DNA of 64,000 nt, taken from the NCBI RefSeq assembly GCF_913020055.1, contig NZ_CAJWCF010000006.1:8273-72272 (forward strand), given 5' to 3'. The DNA is from an uncultured Paraglaciecola sp. (GTDB lineage Bacteria; Pseudomonadota; Gammaproteobacteria; Enterobacterales; Alteromonadaceae). The notes under the pieces are model-generated. The model was not told where the DNA came from, ran no database searches, and was given only the letters and a program-made list of their open reading frames with translations. Shown here piece after piece: positions 8,501 to 27,256 of the stretch (positions are counted from its first letter, which is position 1; every line of letters starts with the position of its first letter). Both the position numbers and the translations under genes were made by a program.

Positions 8501-8776
8501 ATGTTGAATTGGATGGCGTGGACCATGCCAAGTGGTTTGTTCTTTATTGGCATTGCGAGCATTTTGTTGGTGATGACTATTTTCGAAATTCGTAAGCCGT
8601 GTGTTGAGCGTAAAGGTTGGTTACCCATTCCTACTACGCGCGGGGATAGGCTTTTTATTGGCTTATTAAGCAGTGCATTTATACATTTATCGTTTTTGGG
8701 ATTATCAGATTTGTCGTTGTGGATAGCTTTAGCTATGTCGGCGTTACTGATGTTAATACTGCTGCGTTGGGGGTGA
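8501..8776 (+). CDS. Small integral membrane protein (DUF2160 / GlpU-like)
   Basis: 91 aa with WMAWT and TTRGDRLFIGLL motifs typical of DUF2160, between the permeases and the binding protein. Confidence 0.82.
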   Translation: MLNWMAWTMPSGLFFIGIASILLVMTIFEIRKPCVERKGWLPIPTTRGDRLFIGLLSSAFIHLSFLGLSDLSLWIALAMSALLMLILLRWG

Positions 8777-18907: not shown

Positions 18908-20734
18908 ATGCGAATAATAAAACAAACCCTACTATCGGTAGCCGTTTTGGCTTCTTGCGTTGCTTGCGCGCCCGCAAACAAGCCTGAAACTGCTATCAGC
19001 GCCGTGACCTTAACGGCTGCAGATGCAAATGAATTTTTAGAGCAATATGCCAGTGAAATGGAAAAGATAGCAACACCTGCAGCCCATGCTTCATGGGCTT
19101 ATGCAACCCACATCAATTTCGATACTGGAAAAGTCAACGCATATTTTAACGAGCAAACATCGGTATTGAGCGCTCAGTATGCCGTTGCAGCAGCCACATT
19201 TAATGATGTAGAAGTAGACGCGGATACTAGACGCCAACTAGAACTCCTAAAAGCCTCACTCGAAATAGCACCACCTGCAGATCCTGCAAAAGCCGAACGA
19301 CTGGCTGCCATTGGTTCCCAAATGACCAGCATTTATGGAGCGGGTGAGTATTGTAGAGAAGATGGGACTTGTTTGTCTTTAGTGCAAATGAGCGCTGAAA
19401 TGGCAACAAGTCGTGATCCTGAATTACTGCAAGAATATTGGCAAGGGTGGCGCGAAATTTCAAAGCCCATGAAAGACGTTTATGCGGAGCAAGTGCTGAT
19501 TGCGAATGAAGGTGCTAAAGAGCTAGGTTTTGCAAATACTTCTGAATTATGGCGCGCTAAATATGACATGCCCGCCGCTGAATTCCCAAAAGAATTGGAC
19601 CGACTTTGGGGCCAGGTAAAACCTTTTTATGCAGCCTTGCAATGCCATGTACGAGCTGAGTTATCTGAGCATTATGGTGAAGAGACTGTGCCGTTAGACC
19701 AGCCTATACCGGCACATCTTTTAGGAAATATGTGGGCACAAAGCTGGGGTAATATTTACGACATTGTGAAACCAGAACAAGAAATGAATGTCCCTGATGT
19801 GACAAAAGCAATGGCTGACCAAGGCTATGATGAAATTAGAATGGTCAAAGAAGCGGAAGCGTTTTTCTCATCCTTAGGTTTTACATCATTGCCCGAAACG
19901 TTCTGGGAACGTTCAATGTTTCAAAAGCCACCCGGCCGCGATGTGCAATGTCACGCATCTGCCTGGAACATAGACAGTAAAGAAGATTTGCGTATTAAGA
20001 TGTGTATTCAAATTACCGGTGAAGAATTTAACGTTATTCACCACGAGTTAGGTCATAATTATTATCAACGGGCATATAAAGACCTCCCCATTCTTTATCG
20101 TGGCTCTGCCAATAGCGGTTTCCACGAAGCGATTGGTGACACTATTGCTTTGTCGATGACTCCTACGTATTTAAAAGGACTCGGATTAATCGATGACATT
20201 CCTGACGCGTCAAACGACATAGGTATGTTATTAAAAGTAGCGCTGGATAAAATTGCGTTTATTCCTTTTGGCTTAATGGTTGATCAATGGCGCTGGCAGG
20301 TTTTAGCAGGGGACATCACGCCAGATAAATACAACGAATTGTGGTGGGAACTGCGTGAAACCTATCAGGGTGTAGCTGCACCTGTGAGCAGAGATGCTGA
20401 TGCTTTTGATCCCGGTGCTAAATATCATGTACCGGCCAACGTGTCTTACACACGCTATTTTTTAGCACATATCCTACAATTCCAATTTCATAAAGCATTG
20501 TGCGATATTGCTGGCAGTGAAGAGCCATTGCATCGCTGTTCAATTGTGGGCAGTAAAGAGGCCGGAACAGCCTTAAATGACATGCTTGAAATGGGTAAGA
20601 GTCAGCCTTGGCAAGAGGCTATGCAAACAATGACGGGTGGCCGAGATATGGATGCATCCACTATTGAGGCGTATTTTGCCCCTCTGAAAGTGTGGTTAGA
20701 TGAGCAAAACGCTGACCGTCAGTGTGGGTGGTAA
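18908..20734 (+). CDS. M2 family metallopeptidase (peptidyl-dipeptidase A, ACE-like), predicted lipoprotein
   Basis: Lipobox CVAC; HLLGNMWAQSW; zinc motif HHELGH; ANSGFHEAIGD; FDPGAKYHVP; YTRYF. Confidence 0.93.
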   Translation: MRIIKQTLLSVAVLASCVACAPANKPETAISAVTLTAADANEFLEQYASEMEKIATPAAHASWAYATHINFDTGKVNAYFNEQTSVLSAQYAVAAATFNDVEVDADTRRQLELLKASLEIAPPADPAKAERLAAIGSQMTSIYGAGEYCREDGTCLSLVQMSAEMATSRDPELLQEYWQGWREISKPMKDVYAEQVLIANEGAKELGFANTSELWRAKYDMPAAEFPKELDRLWGQVKPFYAALQCHVRAELSEHYGEETVPLDQPIPAHLLGNMWAQSWGNIYDIVKPEQEMNVPDVTKAMADQGYDEIRMVKEAEAFFSSLGFTSLPETFWERSMFQKPPGRDVQCHASAWNIDSKEDLRIKMCIQITGEEFNVIHHELGHNYYQRAYKDLPILYRGSANSGFHEAIGDTIALSMTPTYLKGLGLIDDIPDASNDIGMLLKVALDKIAFIPFGLMVDQWRWQVLAGDITPDKYNELWWELRETYQGVAAPVSRDADAFDPGAKYHVPANVSYTRYFLAHILQFQFHKALCDIAGSEEPLHRCSIVGSKEAGTALNDMLEMGKSQPWQEAMQTMTGGRDMDASTIEAYFAPLKVWLDEQNADRQCGW

Positions 20735-21976: not shown

Positions 21977-23194
21977 TCAAAGCATCCCAGTGGCGCTCAT
22001 GATCAAACGAATACCTAAACCTGCAGTCACCATCACTACTATTATGCCAAGCGTATTACCCAACCATTTATTGGTATATTGACCTAATTGTTTTTTATGG
22101 TTCATGACAACCAGTAAGAAGATGGCAATAACAGGCAACAACAAACCATTGGCAAATTGCGCGGCTAAAATAATGCTAATAGGTTTGATTCCAGTTAAGG
22201 CTAAGATCACACCACTAAAAATGACGCTAAGGGCAATTAACTTAAAGGTACGTGATGACGTGCCGCCCTTAACCCCTAATATTTCTGTCATGGCATAGGC
22301 TGTGGCTAAAGGTGCGGTGATTGAGCTGCTTAAGCCTGCTGCAAAGAAACCTACACCTAACATGGTTTTTGAAAATGAACCGAACAGTGGTTCTAGTTGG
22401 GTTGCCATGTCTCCCGCACCAGATATATTTAACCCGCTACCAAAAATGCTGGCAGCGGCCGTGGAGGCTATCAATATGGTAATTAACCCACCTAATCCAA
22501 TCGCGGTGGCAGTGTCTGCTCTAGCGTGATTTAAATCGTTAACAGATGACCACTTGGCTTTTACCGCTGAGGCATGCAAAAACAAATTGTAGGGTACTAC
22601 TGTTGTACCAATTAAGGCGATGACAGTTAACAGGCTGCCATCAGGGATTTTGGGGGTAGTGAGACCTTTAAAAAGTGCGCTTAAATTGGGGCCAACAGAG
22701 ATAAAGGTCGCAATAAATGCTAGCGCCATCAGCGCGACTAATATCAGTAAAATACGTTCAATTTGTTTATATGAACCACGCCACAGTAAAGTACCCGCTA
22801 ACAGCGAAATAAGAATAACTGAGATTCGGTAAAACGATTGGCTATTATCTGTTAATGCATCGATGCCTAATGCCGCACCGGATAAGTTTCCTGCCTCGTA
22901 TGCTGCATTACCTAAATACAAAGCCACCATGATCAGAGCAAATAACGGCCATTTCCAGATAGATTGATTCAGCATGATTCGTAATGTTTCGCCTAACCCT
23001 TGTTGAGTGACTAAGCCCAAACGAGCGGACATTTCTTGCAAGATAATAGTGGCGATGGTGGCAAATAGTAACGCCCAAAGCAGAGTGTATCCGTAATTTG
23101 CGCCTGCTAAAGTACAAGCCGTGACTGTTCCGGGACCAATAAATGCCGCTGCGATGAGCGCACCAGGACCGATGTTTTTTAAACGTTTTAGCAT
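21977..23194 (-). CDS. NRAMP-related transporter (YcsG-like)
   Basis: NIGPGALIAAAFIGPGTVT, QEMSARLG, GTTVVPYNLFLHA, about 11 TM segments. Lacks the canonical DPGN and TM6 Met. Confidence 0.85.
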   Translation of the reverse strand: MLKRLKNIGPGALIAAAFIGPGTVTACTLAGANYGYTLLWALLFATIATIILQEMSARLGLVTQQGLGETLRIMLNQSIWKWPLFALIMVALYLGNAAYEAGNLSGAALGIDALTDNSQSFYRISVILISLLAGTLLWRGSYKQIERILLILVALMALAFIATFISVGPNLSALFKGLTTPKIPDGSLLTVIALIGTTVVPYNLFLHASAVKAKWSSVNDLNHARADTATAIGLGGLITILIASTAAASIFGSGLNISGAGDMATQLEPLFGSFSKTMLGVGFFAAGLSSSITAPLATAYAMTEILGVKGGTSSRTFKLIALSVIFSGVILALTGIKPISIILAAQFANGLLLPVIAIFLLVVMNHKKQLGQYTNKWLGNTLGIIVVMVTAGLGIRLIMSATGML

Positions 23195-23227
23195 AGATTT
23201 TTATCTACTCTGAGATATTTGATTGGT

Positions 23228-26200
23228 TTATTCATTAGCTTTTCCAAACCCGCCTCCTGTTGGCGACTGAATAGAGATACTGTCTCCGGCTGCCACTGTC
23301 GTAAAGTCACATCCGGCCAGTGCTTGTTGTTCACCGTTGCCTTTCGTTAACCAATTACGCCCGACTCTGCCTGCTTGTCCACCTTTGAGACCGAAGGGTG
23401 GGGTGACTCGGTGTCCTGATAAAATAGAGCACTGCATGTCTTCTAAAAAGGTAATAGTACGGGTAATGCCGTCACCCGCATGCCACTTGCCTGAACCACC
23501 TGAATCACGATCAATGACAAATTCCTTGAGCATCACCGGATATCGTTGTTCTAATATTTCGGGGTCGGTCATACGCGTATTGGTCATATGCGTATGCACT
23601 GCAGCGACACCATTAAACCCATCGCCTGCGGGGCTGCCAGAACAAATAGTTTCGTAATACTGGTAGTTTTCATTGCCAAAGGTCAGGTTATTCATGGTGC
23701 CTTGGCTGGACCCCAGCGCACCTAAAGCGGCAAATAAGGCATTGGTCACCGCTTGGCTTGTTTCAACGTTTCCAGCTACTACCGCCGCCGGAAAGCGCGG
23801 GTTAAGTATCGAACCTTCGGGCACAATAATTTCCAGTGCTTGCATACAACCCGCGTTAAGTGGCACATCATCGTCAACCAAACATCTAAATACATACATC
23901 ACAGCTGCTTGGGTAATGGCTTTTGGCGCATTCAGGTTGTTGTTTTGTTGCGCACTGGTACCAGTAAAATCAATACATGCCTGTAGATTGACCTTATCAA
24001 TAGTAATTTTGACCTTAATGGTCGAACCGGATTCTAACGGATAGCTAAACTCTCCATTCTCTAATCTAGCCAGCACGTTCTGCACAGAGGTTTTTGCGCT
24101 GTCTTGGATATGTTGCATGTAGGCATACACGGTTTTAAGTCCATGCTGGTCGACTAGTTTGAGTAGCTCATTCACACCTGTTTTATTGGCCGCAGTTTGC
24201 GCCATTAAATCGGCCATGTTTTGCGCGACATTTCTTGCAGGATAATCACCTGAAGAAAATAACGTTTCGATATTAGCGGTTTGAAATTGTCCTTGTGCAA
24301 CCAGCTTCACACTGTCGAGTAGAATGCCTTCTTGATGAATGTTAGTCGCTAATGAAGACATAGACCCTGGGGCAATGCCTCCTACGTCTTCATGATGGGC
24401 GCGGCTGGCCACATAAAATAAAATGTGGGTATTAGCCGCATCAAACACAGGGGTAATCACCGTAATGTCGGGTAGATGGGAGCCGCCGTTGTATGGATTG
24501 TTTTGTACAAACACATCGCCCGGATTGATAGATTGTTGACCATTAATAATCACTTTGACGCTGGCATCCATCGAGCCTAAGTGCACGGGCACATGTGGAG
24601 CGTTAGCAATCAAGTTGCCGGTGGCATCAAAAATGGCGCAGGAAAAGTCCAAACGTTCTTTTACATTCACCGACTGAGAAGTATTACGTAACACTATGCC
24701 CATTTGCTGGGCGATGCTCATAAAGGCACTGTTAAATAGCTCTAGGGTGACAGGGTCTGCCTTGTTTAGAGCACTTTCTTCTATTGTCTGACCTGAAATT
24801 AAGGCTGTGTTTATTGGTTCAAAGTGAAGCTCCAAATGGCCATTTACATTCACTTTAGCTCGCCAGTTTTTTTCTATAATGATAGTGCCTGTTGGTTCAA
24901 CAATTATCGTGGGGCCTGATACTTCATGGCCAAATGTGAGTGATGATAAATGTATAACCTGTGCATCTAACCACTGACCTTGGCTATAAATTTGTCTAAC
25001 GCTGTGTGCTTTTATGGATAAGTCTTTGGCCAGAGGGTGTTTGGCTTCTACCACCTTTTCAGCGCCGCCATAGGATTCAACAATTAAGGTATCAATCATT
25101 ATGGGTTTGTCGGCACTAAAGCCAAACTGTTGCTCATGTTGCTGAGTAAAGTTTTTTTGCATAGCTGCAAACGAATCGAGTGGAATATTAAGGCTGGTAT
25201 CCGTATTCAGGTATTTAAGCAAAGCGCTGCTTTGATGATTTATTTGCTTGTTGTTCAAACCTTGGCTGGTTAAGTCTTCAGTATTAGTTTGTTTAAGTTG
25301 TTCAATAGCAACTTGTATTGCTGATATATCACCGCTTTGGATCAGAGGGCACGCGACTTTTTGCCGTTCTACTTTTATATCGGCTAAACCCATACCATAA
25401 GCTGACAAAATGCCCGAGTAACTGTGTAAAAATACGGTTTTAATGCCGAGTTTTTCAGCCACTAAACAAGCATGTTGCCCACCTGCGCCGCCAAAACAAT
25501 TCAGCACATAGTTAGATACATCGTAACCCCGTGCGATGGATATTTTTTTGATAGCTTGTGCCATGTGTTCAATCGCTATGGCTAGAAAACCTTCGGCTAC
25601 GTCTTCAGCACTTCGACCATCGCCAATATTATGCGCAATGTCAGCAAAAGCTTTTACGGAGCTTGTTTTATCTAAAGGTAGGTTTTGCTCTGGACCAAAT
25701 ATACTGGGGAAAAAATCAGCCTGAATTTTGCCTAAGCATAAATTAATATCGGTCACTGCTAACTCGCCATTGCGCCGATAACAAACCGGGCCTGGCACCG
25801 CGCCTGCCGATTCAGGGCCTACTCGAAAACGCCCATCTTGGTAACGTAAAATTGACCCACCACCGGCCGCTACAGTATGAATGTGCAACATAGGCACGCG
25901 CATACGTACCCCTGCTACTTCGGTTTCGTAGGCTTTTTCAAATTCGCCTGCATAGTGCGACACATCAGTTGAGGTGCCGCCCATATCAAAACCAATAATT
26001 TTATCAAAACCGGCTAGTTTAGCGGTGTGTACAGCACCGACTATGCCGCCAGCGGGACCAGACAATATGGCATCTCGGCCACGAAAAGTGTCTGCGCTAG
26101 TCAGGCCGCCAGATGACTGCATAAATAACAATTGAGCGGGTGTGTGTTGGTTTAGACCTTGGCTGATATTTTGAATATAACGCAATAATATAGGGGTGAG

Positions 26201-26863
26201 ATAAGCATCGACTAAGGTGGTTTCACCTCTGGAAATGAGCTTTTGCAAAGGACTGACTTCATGGCTAGTCGAAATTTGGCTAAAACCAATTTCCTTAGCC
26301 AACTGCATTAATTGTTTTTCGTGTTGAGTGTATTGGTAGCCATGCATTAGGACTATTGCAATGGCCGTTAGACCTTGGCTGTAAGCTGTTTCCAATGCCT
26401 TTTTACTGCGTTCAATATCTAGGGCTTGCACACCTTCACCTTTAGCTGTGACTCGCTCGTTTATCTCGATGACCTGAGTGTACAGAATATCGGGTTTTTC
26501 AATCTTTAAGGCAAACGTATCGGGGCGTGCTTGATAGCCAATTTCAAGCGCATCCTTAAAACCCTTTGTGATAGCCAATAAAACCGAGTCGCCTTTGCGT
26601 TCTAACAAGGCGTTAGTCGCGACTGTGGTGCCCATTTTTATTTTGTCTATCAGGTCATCAGGTACGGGATCGGATTGGGGGATATCCAAAATGGATTTAA
26701 TGCCGTAAACGGCTGCATCGGCATAGGCTTCTGGGTTTTCAGATAAATACTTTCTGCACAGCAGGGTGCCATCTGGATGCCTAGCAACGATATCGGTGAA
26801 AGTGCCACCGCGATCAATCCAAAATTGCCAGCTTTTATAAGGTGTATAAGAGTCTTTGTTCAT
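23228..26863 (-). CDS. ATP-dependent 5-oxoprolinase, fused hydantoinase A/B (OPLAH type)
   Basis: 1211 aa; [76 protein letters not shown]. Confidence 0.92.
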
Positions 26864-26962
26864 CTGAAGTGCACTTGTGTAGCTTAATTGTGATTATGCC
26901 AGACCCTATGCTTTAATCTATCAACTTATACTGATTGTTATTGTAAAAGGGGAAGGTTAGTT

Positions 26963-27256
26963 ATGATTATTATTACCGGCGATTTGCTAATAAAAGATGG
27001 CCACATGCCGCAAGCCATACAAGCGTCGCAAAAGCATGTTGCTCACTCTCGCACTGAGCCTGGCTGCATCAGTCATGCCGTGTACCAAGATCCTGAAAAT
27101 GCTTTACGTTTGTTTTTTTATGAACAATGGGCAGATCAGGCCGCCATTGACGCTCATTTTGCCTTACCTAGTTCCCAAGCGTTTGTCGCAGAAGTGCGGG
27201 CATTAGTATCAGCACCAGCAAATTTACATATTTTTAGTGCCGAACAAATTAAATAA
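26963..27256 (+). CDS. ABM-domain protein (putative quinol monooxygenase)
   Basis: 97 aa; SRTEPGCISH, FYEQWADQAAIDAHF. Confidence 0.88.
   Translation: MIIITGDLLIKDGHMPQAIQASQKHVAHSRTEPGCISHAVYQDPENALRLFFYEQWADQAAIDAHFALPSSQAFVAEVRALVSAPANLHIFSAEQIK

Follow-up and report, generated by a model that had tools for sequence, protein, structure and literature searches.

What does a protein of the NRAMP fold carry when the five residues of its metal/proton site have all been replaced and the gene beside it codes for a putative 5-oxoprolinase? This question is raised by a 64,000-nucleotide stretch of DNA from an uncultured Paraglaciecola sp. (contig NZ_CAJWCF010000006.1, positions 8,273 to 72,272 of the forward strand), which is referred to here in its entirety as the window; its G+C content is about 40% and the nearest relatives of its proteins come from Paraglaciecola. 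On the minus strand, the gene for an ATP-dependent lactamase of the eukaryotic OPLAH type is followed by that for the carrier, and we give a probability of roughly 60% to the reading that the carrier imports 5-oxoproline (pyroglutamate) and that the two genes form an operon for 5-oxoproline uptake and hydrolysis. The elements on which the argument turns are listed below, with lengths in amino acids (aa) or base pairs (bp) and transmembrane helices abbreviated as TM.

23228..26863, minus strand: fused HyuA-HyuB ATP-dependent lactamase of the eukaryotic OPLAH type, predicted 5-oxoprolinase, 1211 aa (Pfam, human OPLAH alignment)
23195..23227, minus strand: spacer of 33 bp from the enzyme gene to the carrier gene
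21977..23194, minus strand: NRAMP-fold (LeuT-fold) secondary carrier of the GPGT/TTVVPYN clade, predicted 5-oxoproline importer, 405 aa (PF01566, AlphaFold2, Foldseek, neighbour census)
23126..23137, minus strand: GPGT, residues 20-23, in the unwound part of TM1, in place of DPGN (translation, 10ky alignment, clade alignment)
22886..22888, minus strand: N103, the TM3 residue aligned with the conserved Nramp Glu (DraNramp E134, BfraNramp E116; 10ky alignment)
22586..22606, minus strand: TTVVPYN, residues 197-203, in the unwound part of TM6, in place of A-x-x-M-P-H-N (translation, 10ky alignment, clade alignment)

The 11-TM LeuT-type fold of the carrier and its match to Pfam PF01566 (Nramp; 293 bits) place it within the Nramp fold, and its AlphaFold2 model (pLDDT 94.9, pTM 0.93) superimposes in Foldseek on DraNramp and EleNRMT with TM scores of 0.84-0.87, or 0.82-0.87 when BfraNramp is included. 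However, where canonical MntH proteins have D-P-G-N in TM1, A-x-x-M-P-H in TM6 and a Glu in TM3 (DraNramp E134), the carrier has G-P-G-T, T-x-x-V-P-Y and N103. In translation, residues 18-23 read F-I-G-P-G-T, with GPGT on bases 23137..23126 and TTVVPYN on bases 22606..22586, and mapping with phmmer onto the canonical clade-B Nramp BfraNramp (10ky) sets G20 at the TM1 Asp, T23 at the TM1 Asn, N103 at the TM3 Glu, V200 at the TM6 Met and Y202 at the TM6 His. All five metal/proton-site residues are lost (D to G, N to T, E to N, M to V and H to Y). In the AlphaFold2 model, TM1 breaks at residues 19-20 and TM6 at 199-200, and the replaced residues are predicted to fall exactly at these breaks, the substrate site of LeuT-fold carriers.

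Searching 1.84 billion cluster representatives in full with HMMER gave 7116 hits to the carrier, and F[IV]GPGT together with GTT[VI]VPYNLFLH is found in nearly all of the 150 best representatives (35-64% identity). In an alignment of 109 relatives in the same range of identity, G20 and G22 are invariant, and P21 (107), T23 (106), N103 as Asn (104), T197 (107), T198 (108), V200 (99), P201 (103), Y202 (104) and N203 (102) are kept in almost all sequences, which argues that the GPGT and TTVVPYN replacements are a clade signature and not chance. Moreover, since E100, which lies near the site, alternates between Glu and Gln (61/41), no conserved acidic residue is left at the site positions. Pipelines nonetheless call such proteins metal transporters because they pass the loose NCBIfam model NF037982, 'Nramp family divalent metal transporter' (113 against a cut-off of 50 for the window carrier), although the carrier falls below the cut-offs of the MntH models NF001923 (155.8 against 430) and TIGR01197 (99.7 against 272.5); its relatives appear in databases as 'manganese transport protein' or 'Nramp family divalent metal transporter'.

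The enzyme contains Hydant_A_N, Hydantoinase_A, Hydant_A_C and Hydantoinase_B, in this order, in one polypeptide and aligns end to end with human OPLAH (43% identity over 1266 columns, 948 bits; reference sequence confirmed by exact look-up as NP_060040.1 / OPLA_HUMAN). By sequence, this single polypeptide of four domains, similar over its full length to a proven 5-oxoprolinase, is of the OPLAH type. Among solved structures, those of a fused N-methylhydantoinase (7hk5, 419 bits) and of caprolactamase come closest to its sequence, and the nearest NCBIfam models are likewise those of caprolactamase, with a score far under the cut-offs. Its homologues are named '5-oxoprolinase (ATP-hydrolysing)' by JGI and 'hydantoinase B/oxoprolinase family protein' by NCBI.

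In their layout, the carrier and enzyme genes are an operon-like pair. The same orientation and the 33-bp gap noticed in a preliminary description of this DNA, as well as its reading of GPGT for DPGN and of TTVVPYN, were confirmed on the minus strand by translation and alignment. A terminator scan of the spacer gave no terminator-like site, and a promoter scan of the region before the enzyme gene gave no sigma-70-like site, a result from which nothing is concluded. In relatives, the two genes lie 0-85 bp apart or overlap, with base 8735 in common in one locus (L168) and an overlap of 8 nucleotides in another (L164).

The neighbours of the carrier were surveyed in its 80 best loci, one genome per prokaryote species (48-88% identity), and in the metagenome locus L001; open reading frames (ORFs) were called and clustered and recurrent clusters were annotated with Pfam. 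The count of co-occurrence proposed in the preliminary description thereby became available: genes for PxpABC, a 5-oxoprolinase unrelated to the OPLAH type (pxpA-pxpB-pxpC; LamB_YcsF, CT_C_D, CT_A_B), lie directly downstream of the carrier gene and on the same strand in 48 of 81 loci, a fused OPLAH-type hyuAB gene (1194-1249 aa) lies beside it in 11, and both occur together in none. Six loci end at a contig edge and 17 have neither partner, among them L052 with a TonB-receptor gene. Among ten Pfam-annotated neighbours from six loci, the unlinked carriers have no common partner, their neighbours including TamAB, MCP, 2-hydroxyacid dehydrogenase, fatty-acid hydroxylase, deacetylase and YjbR genes. 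The window itself holds no pxpABC genes over its 64 kilobases (kb), as searched by tblastn with 18 PxpA/PxpB/PxpC and six DUF2891 queries.

In a maximum-likelihood tree, the pxp-linked state is spread over Bacteroidota, Bacillota and Alpha- and Gammaproteobacteria, and the window carrier sits in a clade of 21 (98% in the SH-like approximate likelihood-ratio test, SH-aLRT) with 10 hyuAB-linked, 8 unlinked, 3 contig-edge and no pxp-linked members. A hyuAB-linked carrier from Henriciella (L042) is nested among pxp-linked Hyphomonadaceae; its enzyme is 47% identical to that of the window and the order is reversed, the carrier preceding the enzyme. Joining L042 to the main hyuAB-linked clade was rejected by an approximately unbiased (AU) test (p=0.0012), for a group chosen after the tree had been seen. 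The tree thus argues for at least two independent carrier-hyuAB junctions among the 11 loci.

A third junction is indicated by haloarchaeal sequences. In Haloferax volcanii (pHV4) and in Halorussus (likewise on a plasmid), the genes run from one of the CopG family to that of a GPGT carrier (44-48% identity) and on to hyuA and hyuB as separate genes, their starts and stops overlapping; in Halorussus an Asp/Glu-racemase-family gene comes after hyuB. Compared with the matching halves of the window enzyme and human OPLAH, the two archaeal subunits show 33% and 40% identity. The pHV4 cluster (L172, 538172-543744) belongs to an archaeon that is genetically tractable.

One carrier clade swaps among pxpABC, fused hyuAB and split hyuA/hyuB. 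Because its relatives adjoin unrelated 5-oxoprolinases, the carrier most likely imports pyroglutamate and not a metal. The inference of the preliminary description, which had reached the same substrate, therefore keeps its core, now with three partner types for a single clade, whereas its clause 'not Mn/Fe' is unproven in view of the Mn2+ effects reported for another clade, discussed below. The automatic annotation does read Nramp divalent metal or manganese transporter, as that description had held, and would be wrong if the carrier imports pyroglutamate.

From the side of the enzyme, the GPGT carrier adjoins the enzyme gene in 6 of 7 looked-up loci whose enzyme homologues are 63-66% identical. 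A MarR-type (HTH_27) regulator is also present in most of these seven loci, and a TonB-dependent receptor in several of them. Among further neighbours of the carrier-enzyme pair, the hut genes of L164, the PxpA homologue, glutaminase and DUF969 genes of L167 and a faint Peptidase_C15 match in L166 fit glutamate/pyroglutamate metabolism. A wider survey covered 80 metagenome OPLAH-type loci (48-56% identity, and one at 82%). MarR-type regulators were found in at least 5 of these 80, and a LysR gene with a D-glutamate cyclase gene (PF07286) in 4, which are distinct from the loci with a TRAP system described below.

Could the adjacency be meaningless, a general housekeeping permease having come by chance to lie beside an enzyme gene? 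The heterogeneous neighbours of the 8 unlinked members among the 21 close relatives would agree with this, as would the presence of the carrier in only 1 of the 80 distant loci. Nevertheless, the pair is retained amid differing flanks (a nos cluster, hut genes, a pectate-lyase gene, msrB), its genes overlap in several genomes, the pairing arose at least three times, and 59 of the 75 carrier loci not ended by a contig edge adjoin a 5-oxoprolinase-type gene, which makes chance extremely unlikely. 

Those distant loci point to the substrate in another way. In about 12 of the 80, genes for a tripartite ATP-independent periplasmic (TRAP) system, DctP-DctQ-DctM, stand beside the OPLAH-type gene, and the NRAMP-fold carrier is absent; loci of this kind (50-56% identity) include L087, L089, L107, L109, L118, L144-L146 and L160. 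The one DctP tested, that of L087, scores 399 and 296 bits to 2pfz and 2pfy, which we take to be the Bordetella pertussis DctP receptors crystallised with pyroglutamate, and 82 bits to its next match outside the family. As Pxp and Hyu enzymes are thus mixed with GPGT NRAMP-fold and TRAP carriers, 5-oxoproline uptake and hydrolysis is their simplest common denominator.

The same neighbourhoods bear on the substrate being another small molecule: the carrier might move 5-oxo-D-proline, hydantoin, butyro- or valerolactam or a pyroglutamyl dipeptide, or export the product, with the enzyme as the matching lactamase. Paralogues of Pxp and Opl in Pseudomonas putida hydrolyse butyrolactam and valerolactam (10.1101/2021.12.09.472016), and the caprolactamase models nearest to the enzyme, though far below their cut-offs, the Asp/Glu-racemase-family gene of Halorussus and the D-glutamate cyclase genes found with some OPLAH-type genes agree with such a role. 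It is nonetheless improbable, considering that the enzyme is far closer to human 5-oxoprolinase than to solved lactamases or hydantoinases, that the carrier clade is most often partnered by pxpABC and that neutral lactams would presumably need a carrier less than anionic 5-oxoprolinate does.

The gene context of canonical and NRMT-like Nramp proteins provides a control. On plasmids, canonical DPGN/MPH NRAMP genes adjoin metal genes, including those for a metal-dependent regulator, a Mn ABC binding protein, P-type ATPases, FTR1 and a multicopper oxidase. In addition, a 579-aa NRMT-like NRAMP with D-A-G-A in TM1 and A-P-W in TM6 is encoded on an Arthrobacter plasmid (L174; NZ_CP084557.1, 82697-84436) between corA and a CBS-domain gene, a position that fits Mg2+ transport. 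With DPGN genes among metal genes and an NRMT-like gene beside corA, gene context tracks substrate in the NRAMP superfamily. None of the GPGT-clade loci with annotated neighbours had a metal regulator, a metal ABC system or a P-type ATPase next to it.

The literature on the NRAMP-like genes of pxp and mum operons is split: one paper each on B. subtilis (2017) and C. glutamicum (2026) speaks for 5-oxoproline, and one each on A. baumannii (2016) and B. subtilis (2023) for Mn2+. PxpT (Cg1142) of Corynebacterium glutamicum is required for growth on 5-oxoproline (PMC13274462), and YcsG of Bacillus subtilis is needed for the same growth according to a work that cites the finding from elsewhere. In turn, MumT of Acinetobacter baumannii and YcsG/MntG of B. 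subtilis are reported to raise cellular Mn2+ (PMC5050338, PMC10448178). In the classification of a 2026 preprint, MntG/YcsG falls into a 'G-motif 3' group, other Nramp-related groups are termed entirely uncharacterised, and groups lacking the metal site constitute a paraphyletic grade below the canonical Nramps (10.64898/2026.01.27.701978).

The preliminary description had assigned YcsG to the same transporter family as the window carrier, an assignment that has to be given up. In Foldseek, the carrier is 19% identical to the YcsG integrative model 9a52_A, which is below its identity to MntH. A Citrobacter plasmid holds an operon of genes for an NRAMP, PxpA, a hydro-lyase, a urea-amidolyase family protein and biotin carboxylase, laid out as mumTLUHC of A. 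baumannii, and a Lactiplantibacillus plasmid a cluster of hydro-lyase, PxpA and NRAMP genes; the carriers of both have GPGF in TM1, FNIGN in TM3 and GGTVGGY in TM6. These GPGF carriers are about 24% identical to the window carrier (E values of 1e-6 to 1e-8), and DPGN proteins 26-28% (1e-22 to 1e-27). YcsG, PxpT and MumT probably belong to this GPGF clade, as suggested by operon layout, the Foldseek figure and the published statement that MumT is less than 25% identical to known NRAMPs. By sequence and motifs, the window carrier stands outside their clade, and the linkage to 5-oxoprolinase genes that it has in common with them is a functional resemblance and not membership. The idea that pxpABC-linked GPGT proteins are orthologues of YcsG or PxpT was dropped in view of the same 19% identity and the differing motifs. 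Experiments on YcsG, PxpT and MumT apply to the GPGT clade only by analogy, because they concern a different clade.

Several observations accompany this comparison. The GPGF loci are a Citrobacter freundii plasmid (L177), whose carrier protein is found identically on Klebsiella plasmids, and the Lactiplantibacillus plasmid (L175); mum-like and ycs-like operons of this clade are carried on enterobacterial and lactobacillal plasmids, partly flanked by insertion sequences. An Intestinibacter locus (L055) has a mum/ycs-like layout but a carrier of the GPGT type, and the GPGT and GPGF clades therefore replace each other in similar layouts. This locus was also considered as having the pxpAGBC order of Clostridioides difficile, which was rejected, the actual order being pxpB, pxpC, three ORFs, pxpA and the carrier.

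On this background, import of Mn2+, Mg2+ or Zn2+ through a non-canonical site, which would supply metal-needing ATP-dependent lactamases, can be weighed. In its favour, MumT and YcsG/MntG, metal-site-less relatives in pxp/mum operons, are reported to raise Mn2+, EleNRMT carries Mg2+ with an altered site in the Nramp fold (PMC8806188), and the carrier is kept in the 8 close relatives that have no lactamase gene nearby. The Mn2+ reports, however, come from the GPGF/GGTVGGY clade, and EleNRMT, which is the best sequence match of the carrier in the Protein Data Bank (PDB), retains the TM1 Asp, while the GPGT clade has no conserved acid at the five site positions. In the alignment with 7qia, G20 stands opposite the Asp of the NRMT motif D-A-G-G in TM1, and V-P-Y opposite A-P-W in TM6. 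As the annotated GPGT loci, unlike those of DPGN and NRMT-like genes, are free of metal genes, and as the carriers that replace the GPGT type beside distant OPLAH-type genes are TRAP systems of a pyroglutamate-binding DctP subfamily, that is, carriers of the substrate, a metal seems an unlikely cargo.

Under the preferred reading, the NRAMP-fold carrier would import the anionic lactam 5-oxoproline, probably with H+ or Na+, and the fused OPLAH-type enzyme would open its ring to yield glutamate at the expense of ATP. The backbone amides of G-P-G and the side chains of T23, T197, T198, Y202, N203 and N103 could bind the carboxylate and the lactam. We infer the choice of 5-oxoproline over other small cyclic amides, the direction of transport, the coupling ion and the ligand residues. 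Systems for 5-oxoproline uptake and hydrolysis are of a known kind; this one would be built from a carrier of the GPGT NRAMP-fold clade and an OPLAH-type enzyme.

A number of points weigh against this reading, the most direct of which comes from close relatives. The following gene, for which no functional role is claimed, lies on the far side of the enzyme gene as a conserved flank.

26963..27256, plus strand: divergent ABM-domain gene, 97 aa (Pfam ABM match)

In the window, the hyuAB region of about 3.7 kb separates the ABM and carrier genes, with a gap of 26864-26962 on the ABM side. In Paraglaciecola arctica (L002 9836-9988), hyuAB is absent and the ABM gene lies about 150 bp from that of a carrier 88% identical to the window carrier, a state that parsimony on the tree reads as loss of hyuAB with the carrier retained. 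The presence or absence of hyuAB is clean, the gene being missing in both L002 and L003 and the carrier intact (88% and 87% identity). More generally, those 8 of the 21 subclade members have no lactamase gene nearby, and the pairing is clade-restricted, since the single distant OPLAH-type locus with a carrier is the one at 82% identity. The missing ligands alone are compatible with a metal effect, because MumT and YcsG/MntG are reported to raise Mn2+. Both kinds of 5-oxoprolinase need divalent metals, and cofactor supply would therefore also explain the linkage to both. The published Mn2+ and 5-oxoproline experiments with NRAMP-like proteins concern the other clade, and the P. putida paralogues act on lactams other than 5-oxoproline. 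Moreover, the substrate could vary by subclade, as one haloarchaeal cluster adds a gene of the Asp/Glu-racemase family, which includes hydantoin racemases. Finally, co-transcription of the pair is predicted from layout, and the 21 listed sequencing runs that hold the locus are all DNA metagenomes, marked 'DNA?'.

Other genes recur around these systems. In 18 loci (L027, L030, L032, L045, L046, L050, L051, L054, L060, L063, L065, L066, L068, L069, L077-L079 and L081), a DUF2891 gene (PF11199, 437 bits) occurs with the carrier and pxpABC genes, directly upstream of the carrier gene in 16 of them, downstream of pxpC in L030 and one gene further upstream in L068. The single member examined has a lipoprotein-like signal peptide, and the DUF2891 protein may therefore be an exported partner of the cytoplasmic pathway. 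A MarR-type (HTH_27) gene of about 170 aa is found with the fused OPLAH-type gene in many genomes, often together with a TonB-dependent receptor gene (L082, L083, L165-L168, L008 and L017), and its product is a candidate for a 5-oxoproline-responsive regulator; none was seen beside the window pair within the approximately 5 kb over which ORFs were annotated. The window also contains an ORF for a full-length angiotensin-converting-enzyme-like peptidase (Peptidase_M2, 734 bits; 18908-20734, plus strand), 1.2 kb from the operon and beyond msrB, with no link to the operon established.

If pyroglutamate import is true, thousands of annotations as Mn or divalent-metal transporters, and the models of metal homeostasis derived from them, would be wrong; this estimate rests on the 7116 representative hits and on the near-universal motif in the best 150. 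The locus suggests that Paraglaciecola and other marine heterotrophs use pyroglutamate as a nutrient, and the exchange of one carrier clade between three kinds of 5-oxoprolinase genes (PxpABC, fused Hyu and split Hyu) gives a sharp, testable prediction. It is possible, though doubtful, that the GPGT/VPYN and GPGF clades both carry 5-oxoproline or related lactam acids, that this function is ancestral to metal transport and that the Mn2+ effects are indirect or secondary. If true, the SLC11/Nramp fold would have its first organic substrates in 5-oxoproline or related lactam acids.

Among known systems, PxpT, YcsG and MumT resemble the window carrier in having the Nramp fold without DPGN and MPH and in lying in operons with 5-oxoprolinase-type genes, but their partners are usually pxpA, a hydro-lyase gene and either pxpBC or urea-amidolyase-like genes, and not a gene for an OPLAH-type enzyme. 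Canonical Nramp/MntH (SLC11) proteins and EleNRMT have the fold and PF01566 in common with the carrier; in contrast to MntH, all of its metal and proton ligands are replaced and its context is lactam catabolism, not metal homeostasis, and the TM1 Asp that EleNRMT keeps is lost. The TRAP systems of B. pertussis with DctP6 and DctP7, whose binding proteins were crystallised with pyroglutamate and which are encoded near a eukaryote-type 5-oxoprolinase (as cited in PMC13274462), likewise combine an uptake system with an OPLAH-type enzyme, but they are tripartite and unrelated to the NRAMP-fold carrier of the window. Eukaryotic OPLAH and yeast OXP1 have the same fused A-B architecture as the window enzyme, whereas the latter, whose activity is predicted, is a bacterial protein some 80 residues shorter, with its gene in a predicted operon with that of a carrier.

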